A stretch of DNA of 46,253 nucleotides from a virus. Taxonomy: Duplodnaviria; Heunggongvirae; Uroviricota; Caudoviricetes. The stretch lies in IMG/VR virus record IMGVR_UViG_2721755496_000003, positions 1 to 46,253 of that record; one strand, written 5' to 3'. Of the stretch, positions 21,824-41,758 are shown piece after piece. A program made the translations under genes and the position numbers. How positions within the stretch are numbered: the first letter of the stretch is position 1; each line of letters starts with the position of its first letter. The notes beneath the pieces were generated by a model. It did no database searches. It saw only the letters and a program-made list of their open reading frames with translations, and was not told the origin of the DNA.

Positions 21824-22303
21824 ATGCTTAATCTTTACATCACGCATTCTGATTTATCGCCTCCAGATTGTGTCACAAGAGAGAACAACCGGCTTAGCTC
21901 TGTTATATCCTTGCTTATTTCATCACACAATAGCGATATTATTTCCGTCACTGACTATCTTAAAAAAAATGATATCTCGCATTGTTTTTATTTCCTGTCT
22001 ACAGGGAATATACGCTTTACCACACATAACCATAGTATGATCACGGTACAGACCAAAAAAAGACCTGTTTATATAAACCACAGATCAAACAATATCTGGA
22101 CAAAACTGGTTATCAAAAAACATTTATCCGGTAGCATACCTTTTTTCCGTAGCCACTTTACTCTGTCCCAGGCAGGCATATTTAAATATGTTCTGGATGT
22201 AAACAGGAAACAATGCCAGTATTATTCAATGCAGAACCATATTTTGCATTCACAATTCATCATTCCGGTTTCTTCCACCATCGCACCGGACTGGCGATTA
22301 TGA
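21824..22303 (+). CDS. Hypothetical AT-rich protein (moron) between Rz and cos, opposite strand to the late genes
   Basis: 159-aa ORF in a markedly AT-rich island at the position lambda uses for bor; no recognisable motif. Confidence 0.3.
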   Translation: MLNLYITHSDLSPPDCVTRENNRLSSVISLLISSHNSDIISVTDYLKKNDISHCFYFLSTGNIRFTTHNHSMITVQTKKRPVYINHRSNNIWTKLVIKKHLSGSIPFFRSHFTLSQAGIFKYVLDVNRKQCQYYSMQNHILHSQFIIPVSSTIAPDWRL

Positions 22304-22456
22304 GGGTACAATCCGCGCCCCGTTCAGTTCACGCGGCAAAACCCGGTGTGTATCGTTTCTGATTATTCCCGCACACTCGCGCAGAGGAGTATCCCGCAAG
22401 GGCTGCGGTCTCTGTTAATGCGGGAATACGGCGACGATACTGCGCATAAAGAAAAC

Positions 22457-22924
22457 TTATTTCAGACACTGAGTACGGATATATGCCTGCGCCCCTTCCA
22501 GTTGCGCCTGCATCGTTTTCAACTTGTCTCTGAGGGTGAAATAATTCCATTCAGCGGCGTCTGCCAGTCTGGGGCGGGCTGCATTATCCATGCTGGCGGT
22601 TCCGGTGGTTTTGTCTGTGGTGGACACGCAGGTGGCGTTGACGCGCAGGCGCTTACGGCCAGCGGCAACATCAGCGCGCAGATTTTCATTTTCAGCTCTC
22701 GCATCGGCTAACTCCTTTGTATATTTTGCATCGAGTGCAGCAACATCACGCTGGCGCTGCTGCATGTCAGTAATGGTTGCATTCGCTTTATCCAGTTCAC
22801 TGGCTTTGTTATCGCGCTGCGCTTTGTAGGTAATGGCGTTATCACGGTAATGGTCTGTTGCCAGCCACAGAGCACCACAGGACGCCAGCAGTACAGTAAT
22901 CACCACATACAGAACACTGCTCAT
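22457..22924 (-). CDS. Rz: Inner-membrane spanin component Rz
   Basis: N-terminal TM helix then ...HYRDNAITYKAQRDN...ITDMQQRQRDVAALDAKYTKELADA... matches lambda Rz. Confidence 0.8.
   Translation of the reverse strand: MSSVLYVVITVLLASCGALWLATDHYRDNAITYKAQRDNKASELDKANATITDMQQRQRDVAALDAKYTKELADARAENENLRADVAAGRKRLRVNATCVSTTDKTTGTASMDNAARPRLADAAEWNYFTLRDKLKTMQAQLEGAQAYIRTQCLK
22519..22704 (-). CDS. Rz1: Outer-membrane lipoprotein spanin Rz1, embedded in the +1 frame of Rz
   Basis: Lipobox (LAVSAC), Pro-rich, ends ...PPAWIMQPAPDWQTPLNGIISPSE as in lambda Rz1. Confidence 0.65.
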   Translation of the reverse strand: MRELKMKICALMLPLAVSACASTPPACPPQTKPPEPPAWIMQPAPDWQTPLNGIISPSETS

Positions 22925-22931
22925 ATCACCG

Positions 22932-23063
22932 TCACCCCAGCAACCCGGATAAAGTCAATGCTCGCCAGGCCGTGGAAAGAAAAAGAGCAACCAGCATTAC
23001 TGACAATGAAATGCCGACAATTACACAGAGGACCTGCGCCAGTTTTATGAGTTTGTCTGGCAT
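22932..23063 (-). CDS. Small hydrophobic peptide (43 aa, one predicted TM helix) between R and Rz
   Basis: ATG at 23063-23061; MPDKLIKLAQVLCVIVGISLSVMLVALFLSTAWRALTLSGLLG; stop 8 nt before the Rz start; not in ORF track (below 60 aa). Confidence 0.25.
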   Translation of the reverse strand: MPDKLIKLAQVLCVIVGISLSVMLVALFLSTAWRALTLSGLLG

Positions 23064-23065
23064 GC

Positions 23066-23254
23066 TTACCCCTTAATTGCGGTAATTAACTGTGATACCC
23101 CCCATAAAAACGGGATGATCCAGACCAGCAGAAACTTCCAGTTTGGTAATTGGCCAATCATGAGTCGCAACTCCCTAATCAGTTTGCTAAAATCAATCAA
23201 GGCAGCCTCCCATAACTTACTGCCATAAACACAAAACCCCGTTTGCGCTAACAA
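23066..23254 (-). CDS. Small membrane protein between R and Rz (62 aa from a TTG start, or 31 aa from ATG at 23161 with a GGAG RBS)
   Basis: C-terminal hydrophobic helix KFLLVWIIPFLWGVSQLITAI; GGAG 9 nt upstream of the internal ATG. Confidence 0.25.
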   Translation of the reverse strand: MLAQTGFCVYGSKLWEAALIDFSKLIRELRLMIGQLPNWKFLLVWIIPFLWGVSQLITAIKG

Positions 23255-23270
23255 TCGGGGTTTTTACTTT
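23228..23270. terminator. Bidirectional intrinsic terminator-like hairpin downstream of R
   Basis: aaaaccccg-N14-cggggttttt with A-tract upstream and T-tract downstream. Confidence 0.35.
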
Positions 23271-23354
23271 TATTCACTTACGCTTTGCCATTTCGCAGGA
23301 TTTCGTGTTATCCGCCCGCGTTGGCCAACGTCATTTTTCAGCAGAACATTCTGC

Positions 23355-23888
23355 TTATCTGTCGATACTCCAGCACGCCAGCGCGCTCTCCTGGTCACGC
23401 CGCGATACCTGCCCGTAACAGTTATTTGAGCGGTTCCGACAGTCCCTGCCGCCGTCATATATCCATCGGCGGATTTCAGCACATGCACCTTTCCGGTCTC
23501 CGGCGTTCAGCTTCCGGTAAAACATTGAGGTGAAGCATTTCGAAGGCCCGATGTTGTACGGACAGAATGACGCGATGCCCGCTTTCTGGGGTTCGGTCAG
23601 TGGCACTTTGATGTTTTTCTCCACCCACGCCAGCGCCCTGTCGCGTTCAATGGCATTAACCTGAGCGCATTTTTCCTTCGTCAGCTTCATGCCGGGGACT
23701 ACTGGTCTGCCATCCACCCGGGTGGCACCACGGCAGATGGTCCAGATACCTGCGCCATCACGGTATGCCGTAGTGTGGTTGCCTTCTTTTTCATCCAGAA
23801 ACTGGTCAAGGATTTCAGGCGCAGAAGCCCCTGCGGCAATCAGCGCCAGAACGGCAGCCGACAGGCCGTATCTGATTTTTGTGTTCAT
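23355..23888 (-). CDS. R: SAR endolysin (family-24 lysozyme-type muramidase with N-terminal signal-anchor-release helix)
   Basis: N-terminal hydrophobic LSAAVLALIAAGASA then EGNHTTAYRDGAGIWTICRGATR lysozyme motif; resembles phage 21/933W R. Confidence 0.8.
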   Translation of the reverse strand: MNTKIRYGLSAAVLALIAAGASAPEILDQFLDEKEGNHTTAYRDGAGIWTICRGATRVDGRPVVPGMKLTKEKCAQVNAIERDRALAWVEKNIKVPLTEPQKAGIASFCPYNIGPSKCFTSMFYRKLNAGDRKGACAEIRRWIYDGGRDCRNRSNNCYGQVSRRDQESALACWSIDR

Positions 23889-24005: not shown

Positions 24006-24320
24006 ATGAACAGTAAAGAAAGTTTGCGCAGAAAATTTTTACAACTAATGACAGAAAACGTTAAATCAGAGTTACTTCTTCAGATGGCGGACAATAACGA
24101 AGTAACGAGCAGCATTCTTGCAGACCCTTACGGTAAACTCTCACATAAAACGCTGGATATTATTACCACAACACTAACACCACTTATGCTTCAACGGCTG
24201 AAACATAATATCAACGCATGGGTTAATGAAGAATTAAGTCCTCCCTGCTTATGGGATTCTCGTTACGCATGTCAGCAAAAAATGCGAATTTTCAACTTAC
24301 TATCACCAAAGCTCAGGTAG
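24006..24320 (+). CDS. Hypothetical 104-aa protein inserted between holin and endolysin on the opposite strand
   Basis: AT-rich ORF with GAGG 8-11 nt upstream of the ATG; no recognisable domain. Confidence 0.35.
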   Translation: MNSKESLRRKFLQLMTENVKSELLLQMADNNEVTSSILADPYGKLSHKTLDIITTTLTPLMLQRLKHNINAWVNEELSPPCLWDSRYACQQKMRIFNLLSPKLR

Positions 24321-24575: not shown

Positions 24576-24791
24576 CTACTCTCCACGCGCCGCCTTACGA
24601 CGGTCCTCTTTAATCTTGAAGTACAGGTTCGTCAGGTACGTTAACAGACCAAACAGCAGACTCCCCAGCACGCCTATTGCCGCCCACTGAGACGGGGATA
24701 CCCTGTCCAGCAACTGCAGAAACCAGTATCCCGTCCCGACCGCAGACGTGGTGTATGACACACCTGTTGTGATTTTTTCCATCTGGTACAT
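24576..24791 (-). CDS. S: Class II holin (pinholin, S21-like) with dual-start motif
   Basis: [71 protein letters not shown]; two Met codons at positions 1 and 4; two TM segments. Confidence 0.8.
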
Positions 24792-41699: not shown

Positions 41700-41758
41700 T
41701 TTCTGGTGACGTTTGGCGGTACCAGTTTTACTCCGTAACTGCTCTGCCGCCTTTTTTA
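41700..41758 (+). ncRNA. dicF: DicF-like sRNA (ftsZ-targeting antisense RNA) with intrinsic terminator
   Basis: tttctggtgacgtttggcggtaccagttttactccgtaactgctctgccgcc followed by tttttt; matches E. coli DicF as recalled with 2-3 substitutions. Confidence 0.7.

Follow-up and report, generated by a model that had tools for sequence, protein, structure and literature searches.

What separates the endolysin gene from the spanin genes in a lambda-like prophage, and what could it be for? The question is raised by positions 22,932 to 23,354 of IMG/VR virus record IMGVR_UViG_2721755496_000003, a stretch of 46,253 nucleotides (nt) which we refer to as the window, and which is a lambda-like E. coli prophage with its late genes on the minus strand. 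The endolysin gene R and the spanin genes Rz/Rz1 are spaced 430 nt apart, and on the minus strand the order is R, a terminator-type hairpin, two small open reading frames (ORFs), here called orfA and orfB, and then Rz/Rz1. A first-pass annotation of the same sequence had set this arrangement against lambdoid phages in which S, R and Rz are contiguous. This is true of the Qin prophage of E. coli K-12, where R and Rz overlap, but it is not general, as 1534 of 5426 complete E. coli genomes (about 28%) match the 461-nt interval, 702 of them over at least 80% of the interval. From the comparison of these and other loci, the hairpin and the small ORFs are best described as a mobile, mosaic, dispensable and widespread accessory module of the late operons of enterobacterial temperate phages. 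The elements of the module in the window are the following.

23233-23264, both strands: terminator-type hairpin with the arms AAAACCCCG (23233-23241) and CGGGGTTTT (23256-23264) and A-/U-rich tracts (about 23225-23275).
23201-23224, minus strand: second small stem-loop (GGCAGU...GCUGCC), with the orfA Shine-Dalgarno sequence GGGAGG (23211-23206) in its loop and 3' arm.
23185-23193, plus strand: extended -10-like motif TGCTAAAAT, the complement of orfA codons 3-6 and a consensus match only.
23171-23175, minus strand: internal GGGAG (orfA codons R9-E10), which may serve as a ribosome-binding site for the codon-14 ATG, 9 nt further downstream.
23066-23200, minus strand: orfA, 44 amino acids (aa), TTG start, MIDFSKLIRELRLMIGQLPNWKFLLVWIIPFLWGVSQLITAIKG, with a charged N-terminal helix and one C-terminal transmembrane helix; phrog_6632.
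22932-23063, minus strand: orfB, 43 aa, ATG start, MPDKLIKLAQVLCVIVGISLSVMLVALFLSTAWRALTLSGLLG, with one transmembrane helix; phrog_4906.

Are the two ORFs genes at all? Chance alone yields many small ORFs (69 with 20 aa or more overlap the 4 kb around the locus), and the reality of orfA and orfB must therefore rest on conservation and codon statistics. The orfA frame is intact in 171 of 176 loci, and the orfB frame in all 165 loci, with no internal stop. The small ORFs are thus conserved as reading frames in homologous intervals, a point on which the first-pass annotation had made its proposal depend. Pooled Nei-Gojobori estimates of the ratio of nonsynonymous to synonymous divergence (dN/dS) were 0.24 for orfA (40 unique sequences) and 0.28 for orfB (34 unique sequences), each the lowest of the six frames, with 0.44 and 0.39, respectively, for the opposite-strand shadow frame. 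The protein is conserved across genera although synonymous sites are near saturation (proportion of synonymous differences, pS = 0.66), and within orfA the synonymous divergence is 0.31 in codons 2-13 compared to 0.66 in codons 15-43. These statistics argue strongly that orfA and orfB are real protein-coding genes. A 37-aa ORF on the opposite strand (23115-23228), which ends at the hairpin, was also considered as a gene and rejected on its dN/dS (0.44 against 0.24); its frame is open for just 28 codons in the commonest E. coli type, and since the lowest dN/dS lies in the orfA frame, we take the plus-strand ORF to be a shadow.

The first ORF had been given a length of 31 to 62 aa and a single hydrophobic helix. 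The ORF and its helix hold, while the 62-aa reading was rejected; its TTG lies within the hairpin loop, and the extra N-terminus comes from translating the hairpin and the ribosome-binding site. As judged by the PHROG profile and the alignment of homologues, the start of the conserved protein is 18 codons further on, at TTG 23200, with a GGGAGG ribosome-binding site 5 nt upstream. Of 176 loci, 81 use GTG and 88 use TTG as the start codon (169 together) and none uses ATG, always behind a strong ribosome-binding site. Because ATG is avoided in spite of this strong site, selection for weak initiation is suggested. Annotation pipelines mostly miss orfA or give it a wrong size (31 to 77 aa), and the GTG/TTG start defined here corrects its annotation.

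The internal ATG with a GGAG motif before it, noted in the first pass, is real, and the motif is a candidate ribosome-binding site. Codon 14 of orfA is an ATG (23161-23159) that is invariant across the family and from which 31 aa remain, and GGGAG lies 9 nt upstream of it. In every intact family member R9 is encoded by AGG or CGG, both rare Arg codons, and E10 by GAG (codon table of 45 unique sequences). Three to four degenerate loci retain only the portion from the codon-14 ATG onward, and a form of 31-32 aa is what some annotators call for orfA. A dual start giving proteins of 44 and 31 aa is possible.

Both proteins contain one 19-residue segment with a Kyte-Doolittle hydropathy of at least 1.97, and for orfA the positive-inside charge distribution favours an N-in orientation. 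The orfA protein matches phrog_6632, of unknown function, at E = 2.8e-15 (profile positions 2-43 of 45), and has homologues in at least 10 genera, with Escherichia, Salmonella, Citrobacter, Providencia, Cronobacter, Enterobacter, Brenneria, Pantoea, Edwardsiella, Sodalis and Yersinia among them. The orfB protein matches phrog_4906, also of unknown function, at E = 3.3e-22 (profile positions 9-49 of 49). It is narrower in distribution than orfA, forming 10 clusters at 50% identity among 1.8 billion representatives, and is labelled a hypothetical protein by PGAP; full-length tblastn matches were found in 276 phage records, including the Shiga toxin (Stx) phages VT2-Sakai and EDL933-Stx. The second ORF of 43 aa with one hydrophobic helix just before Rz was in other words correctly recognised, apart from its distance to the Rz ATG, which is 7 nt and not 8. 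The gap from the orfA stop to the orfB start is 2 nt, and promoter and terminator scans of the stretch from orfA to Rz gave no promoter-like or terminator-like site.

Is the hairpin a terminator? A bidirectional terminator-like hairpin after R had been proposed, and with this the folding on both strands, the U tracts, the covariation and RNAalifold agree. The stem consists of 9 bp (AAAACCCCG/CGGGGUUUU) and inner pairs. Its folding energy is -16.6 kcal/mol as minus-strand RNA, where UUUUGUGUUUAU comes next, and -15.2 kcal/mol as plus-strand RNA (z = -4.8, none of 200 shuffles being as stable), where UUUUUACUUUUAUU comes next. With a GC-rich stem-loop and a U-rich tract directly 3' of it, the hairpin has the structure by which an intrinsic (Rho-independent) terminator is defined. 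The built-in terminator scan did not flag the hairpin in the window, as the scan has a loop limit of 8 nt; the same scan does flag the homologous hairpin in locus L181.

A similar hairpin is found 35-45 nt upstream of the orfA start in 57 of 59 unique orfA loci, in any genus and behind any upstream gene. Its stem comes in versions with compensatory change (AAAACCCCG, AAAGCCCCG, AAAGCUCCG and AAGGCCCAG). In an alignment of 24 diverse leaders 95.5% of the cells pair, double changes occur at 8 of 13 pairs and none of 500 shuffles equalled this; when the partner is slid by one column the pairing falls to about 60%, and an unguided RNAalifold run recovered the same helix. The U tract 3' of the stem and the A tract 5' of it are also conserved in the relatives, and stem and tracts together bear what we read as the signature of a bidirectional intrinsic terminator. 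Further, the late-operon-sense RNA was the more stable one in 36 of 41 unique hairpins, with a mean difference of -2.4 kcal/mol, and across the same set the sense strand has 48 G.U pairs and the other 17. From this asymmetry, selection seems to act mainly on the sense transcript. All in all, the leader data point firmly to a genuine and selected structure of the terminator type.

The second stem-loop, closer to orfA, folds with -8.9 kcal/mol and is not significant alone (z = -1.4), and a stem is present at the same place in relatives in at least 5 sequence versions. A search of the R-Rz interval against Rfam, with gathering as well as relaxed thresholds, gave only chance-level matches to sar, BSnc120 and the rimP leader. 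Known small RNAs (sRNAs), i.e. the AgvB/AsxR anti-sRNAs and the Pas sRNAs, were considered and rejected, as they are located upstream of the holin and not between R and Rz. In loci L012 and L130 a second, unrelated terminator-like hairpin is situated about 60 nt upstream of the leader hairpin and forms a tandem pair with it (CCGACCGCTGAGAGCGGTTTTTTT in L012; CCCCTG...CAGGGGGTTTT in L130).

How is the module distributed? It is also present in Salmonella prophages. A pattern search of viral contigs revealed that a shared leader, made up of hairpin and ribosome-binding site, precedes not only orfA but also a 60-aa ORF (orfC-long), a 50-aa ORF ending in RWW (orfD-long) and two other small transmembrane ORFs. 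The leader is followed by closely spaced small genes, one to four in number, whose products are single-pass inner-membrane proteins of 28-60 aa, and the last of these genes adjoins Rz. The gene orders observed are as follows.

R-A-B-C-D-Rz: the commonest arrangement among the loci retrieved with orfA.
R-A-B-Rz: the arrangement of the window, rare, with 3 loci and one near-identical E. coli genome, strain A39.
R-Clong-B-Rz: a further arrangement.
R-ant-B-Rz: Stx2 phages, with orfB directly before Rz.
GH108-type endolysin, Clong, B, lipoprotein gene: a further arrangement.
Plain R-Rz: K-12 Qin.

Sequence comparison suggests that the window has lost orfC and orfD, probably when the DNA bounded by short GGTGA repeats was deleted. 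In the R-A-B-C-D-Rz order, orfC and orfD are short (38 aa and 28 aa) and represent N-terminally truncated forms of the 60-aa and 50-aa cassette heads (L024 2812-3032; L181 1301-1486; L268). The cassette evolves through recombination inside the small genes. Several of the small proteins end in RWW right before the Rz start (TGGTGGTGATATG). In Stx2 phages, for example VT2-Sakai (L005 3179-3748), the antirepressor gene ant is situated between R and orfB, and the hairpin is replaced by the insertion. Locus L241 (1640-2575) carries a gene for a 311-aa methyltransferase-like protein between orfB and Rz.

Of the orfA loci, 87 have a sizeable ORF upstream. This is an endolysin of the signal-arrest-release (SAR) type (phrog_7) in 61, and in about 13 further loci an endolysin of phrog_873, 315, 181 or 465, or a CHAP-like enzyme. 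The ORF downstream is an Rz-like spanin in about 70 of the orfA loci, and an endolysin-to-spanin context is found in about 75 of the 87. The cassette thus follows endolysins of at least five unrelated families; orfB is likewise found behind GH108-type and SAR endolysins, and orfA also co-occurs with non-SAR endolysins and canonical holins.

In the window the module is embedded in a lysis locus with the following genes.

31407-32081: Q antiterminator gene (PF06323), upstream of the late genes.
25512-27467: nanS-like esterase gene, a late gene, followed in order by a DUF826 gene, the holin, R and Rz/Rz1.
24576-24791, minus strand: S21-type holin (Phage_holin_2_1).
23355-23888, minus strand: SAR-type endolysin R of 177 aa (Pfam PF00959, E = 2.6e-25; phrog_7 endolysin), the upstream neighbour of the module.
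22457-22924, minus strand: Rz i-spanin (PF03245, E = 1.8e-47), the downstream partner of the module.
22519-22704, minus strand: Rz1 o-spanin (PF06085, E = 1.8e-19), embedded in Rz.

R is annotated as rrrQ or lysozyme in the homologous E. coli loci, and Rz/Rz1 are followed by the Nu1/A terminase genes and then by head and tail genes.

Which function could such a module have? Searches against Pfam, NCBIfam and PHROG gave no similarity of orfA or orfB to holins, Rz, Rz1 or the DUF2730 releasin. Held against spanins, their periplasmic tails are just 2 and 14 residues long, a lipobox is absent and PF03245 and PF06085 are not matched; held against releasins, DUF2730 is not matched and the transmembrane helix of orfA is C-terminal. 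Defence-system (PADLOC), Pfam, NCBIfam and PDB searches gave no informative matches for either ORF, and the names found in databases are all of the kind 'hypothetical', 'transmembrane' or 'phage protein'. Profile-profile comparison did not indicate a common ancestry of orfA, orfB and orfC/D (probabilities of 1.6% or less); by eye, only orfA and orfC-long resemble each other, over their N-terminal 14 codons.

We propose that orfA and orfB encode late, Q-antitermination-dependent, non-essential inner-membrane accessories that modulate the last membrane-level steps of lysis, and put the probability of this reading at roughly 45%. In lytic growth, Q-modified RNA polymerase from pR' would read through the hairpin, and orfA, orfB and Rz/Rz1 would then be translated as a coupled chain. 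When antitermination is lacking, the hairpin would stop transcription arriving from upstream, and this block, along with the obligatory weak GTG/TTG start of orfA, would keep the membrane peptides and the spanins off in the lysogen. The peptides would insert N-in in the inner membrane and act as dispensable modulators of timing or of spanin or holin behaviour, and not as core lysis effectors. We favour modulation over execution because the cassette is specific to this junction across unrelated endolysins and is yet dispensable and mosaic. The first-pass annotation had offered accessory lysis regulators, antiholin- or spanin-related, and an uncoupling of Rz expression. The association with the junction fits the first of these, while no link to antiholins or spanins was found; uncoupling of Rz is unlikely in lytic growth, as the Q antiterminator is encoded and the close spacing of orfA, orfB and Rz suits translational coupling.

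Several observations weigh against a role in lysis. In about six loci the hairpin and orfA lie between baseplate V-like and W-like genes, away from the lysis genes (among them L010, L015 and L017, about 2400-2650, in Pantoea, Dryocola and Yersinia prophages), and a strong terminator is hard to reconcile with such a location. The isolated phages that carry orfA or orfB are all temperate, the module being seen only in temperate phages and prophages, and the R-Rz junction is a known insertion hot spot, into which ant and the methyltransferase gene also insert; temperate-only occurrence and hot spot would fit a moron of benefit to the lysogen equally well. Profile and sequence searches gave no similarity of orfA or orfB to any characterised lysis regulator, and a literature search by topic and by peptide strings found no paper on them. 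As many phages lyse without the module, any role in lysis would be modulatory at most. In L015 the hairpin and orfA are joined by three more tandem small transmembrane ORFs.

The best-surviving alternative is accordingly that the module is a moron, extra DNA which would serve the lysogen or prophage through superinfection exclusion, membrane-stress tolerance or anti-defence, its adjacency to Rz marking a permissive insertion site only. The restriction to temperate phages, the mosaic and fast-changing composition of the cassette, the other insertions at this junction and the presence of orfA between baseplate genes are all in line with it, and R and Rz, adjacent in K-12 Qin, are parted here and in many prophages. 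The exclusion moron gp15 of HK97 is similarly located among tail genes. On the other hand, the promoter scan found no sense-strand promoter of the module's own, the terminator is upstream of the genes and not downstream, and translational coupling to Rz would place expression late and not in the lysogen. PADLOC gave no matches, and about 75 endolysin-to-spanin contexts in 87 are more specific than a generic insertion site predicts. We therefore regard the moron as possible, if on the unlikely side.

A third explanation resembles type I toxins and the sar RNA. Here the leader would encode a cis-antisense sRNA of about 70 nt (plus strand, about 23200-23270) with the hairpin as its terminator. 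By base-pairing over the ribosome-binding site and start codon, this sRNA would silence a toxic membrane peptide. All 43 unique orfA leaders contain the -10-like motif TGCTAAAAT, and all 35 orfC-long leaders have TATACT or TATAAT equally far from the start codon, preceded 18 nt upstream by TAGTCA. The promoter scan flags the antisense site in two loci, L181 and L216, and does not flag it in the window, and as 0.6 chance hits are expected in the L181 stretch and the motifs are consensus matches only, the idea that TGCTAAAAT is the promoter of such an RNA ending at the hairpin is speculative. The orfC-long leaders may not be an independent case either, since the N-termini of orfA and orfC-long look related. 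The synonymous divergence in codons 2-13 of orfA, half that of codons 15-43, would suit an antisense RNA, as would the predicted layout of the RNA, with a 5' stem-loop bearing an anti-Shine-Dalgarno sequence, then an A-rich spacer and lastly a U-tailed terminator, which is typical of sRNAs. The peptides are also of a suitable kind, being small (44 and 43 aa, below 60), hydrophobic and with one transmembrane helix, and the orfA start is obligatorily weak. Against this, the greater stability of the sense hairpin and its excess of G.U pairs point to selection on the late-operon strand, and no Rfam family was matched. We hold the antisense explanation to be improbable.

That the ORFs have no protein function and are chance or shadow ORFs, or spacers passing ribosomes on to Rz, with only the hairpin being of importance, is highly improbable and has largely been refuted, for even though short ORFs are frequent by chance, an opposite-strand ORF overlaps orfA and many functional phages do without the module, the dN/dS is lowest in the proposed frames, the opposite-strand frame stays open for no more than 28 codons in E. 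coli's commonest type and the protein is conserved across genera.

Some further features of the window were noted around the lysis locus. A 104-aa ORF on the plus strand (24006-24320), which matches phrog_1853 of unknown function and has no Pfam match, lies in an AT-rich insert parting the holin from the endolysin. At the same spot relatives have a co-oriented YdfR-family gene (L002) or another plus-strand hypothetical gene (L001), and since the genes differ between relatives, the S-R junction is a second variable insertion site. On the other side, a DUF1398 (YdfO-like) gene on the plus strand (21824-22303) is convergent with Rz, where lambda has bor, and is followed by just a weak terminator-like site (22394-22408). 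Because this terminator is weak, antisense transcription via Rz, orfB and orfA up to the bidirectional hairpin is conceivable. An LpxR-like outer-membrane lipid A deacylase (PF09982, E = 1e-37) is encoded between Q and the late genes but in the opposite orientation (28520-29545, plus strand), and its gene is likely a virulence or envelope-modifying moron. Two Rfam matches reached the gathering level, the STnc100 sRNA (28146-28355, minus strand, 83.5 bits) in the late leader region behind Q, and DicF (41701-41752, plus strand, 70.5 bits) in the early region.

What does the locus then add to the picture of phage lysis? Lysis is deemed well mapped in terms of holin, endolysin and spanin, and spanins, releasins and disruptins were each discovered as overlooked small genes in lysis cassettes. 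The copy in the window is by itself unremarkable, as its family is common and, though uncharacterised, already listed in databases as hypothetical proteins. What appears to be undescribed is the picture at module level, in which a leader of the terminator type heads a mosaic cassette at the endolysin-spanin junction, non-ATG starts are obligatory, and a dual start or an antisense RNA is possible. A wider reading is that enterobacterial temperate phages, including Stx phages, have a regulatory unit so far unrecognised, in which mosaic, tiny, bitopic inner-membrane proteins of at least four PHROG families would be silenced by a dedicated terminator, possibly also by a cis-antisense sRNA with its promoter encoded within the first codons, and freed only by late antitermination, to act as new modulators of lysis timing or of spanins and holins, or as a toxin-like membrane effector, with orfA perhaps dual-start (44 and 31 aa) like antiholins; this we consider doubtful. 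The module occurs in about a quarter of complete E. coli genomes, and in Stx2 phages, where the timing of lysis controls toxin release, it lies directly before Rz. If the peptides do tune lysis, they would offer a handle on Stx release and prophage-mediated killing. Should they instead be morons or a toxin/antisense pair, they would form a common and unannotated part of the interplay between prophage and host.

How does the module compare to known systems? The closest layout is perhaps that of phage P2, where lysA is reportedly a non-essential membrane-protein gene between the endolysin gene K and the spanin genes lysB/lysC. Both systems have a membrane-protein gene between the endolysin and Rz/Rz1 or their equivalents, co-transcribed with them in P2 and probably also here; LysA differs in being larger and multi-pass, and in having no terminator-type leader, and we found no sequence similarity between it and orfA or orfB. 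The dual-start holin/antiholin genes (lambda S107/S105; phage 21 S21 71/68) likewise encode small inner-membrane proteins, and in orfA 13 codons separate two candidate starts, both preceded by a ribosome-binding site; the longer form adds a charged N-terminal segment. However, orfA shows no similarity to the S21 holin of the window and forms a gene of its own behind R, and its dual start is putative.

The Mu gp25 releasin (DUF2730) combines an N-terminal transmembrane with a cytoplasmic domain, and its family occurs with SAR and cytoplasmic endolysins (PMC9239132). It is like orfA and orfB a small membrane-tethered protein of the lysis region, but these have no Pfam match and the opposite layout. 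Morons of lambdoid phages were defined as extra DNA between genes that are adjacent in relatives (Juhala et al. 2000, as cited in PMC4104026). Small membrane proteins, as in HK97 gp15, and a restriction to temperate phages are common to both; classical morons have their own promoter upstream and their own terminator downstream, whereas the module has its terminator in front and its genes continue straight into Rz.

Type I toxin-antitoxin loci, such as hok/sok, ibs/sib and zorO/orzO (PMC2887945), and the P22 sar RNA share with the module a hydrophobic peptide of less than 60 aa whose translation is restrained, and a candidate antisense RNA that covers the ribosome-binding site and ends at a terminator. 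The hairpin is in our case better as sense RNA, and the peptide gene is within a late operon and does not stand alone. Finally, the hairpin recalls the tR' principle of terminators in Q-antiterminated late operons, with a GC-rich stem, a U tract and a Q gene in the window, while it differs from tR' in its position in the middle of a lysis cassette and in that it moves with the small genes, also into operons that are not obviously Q-controlled.

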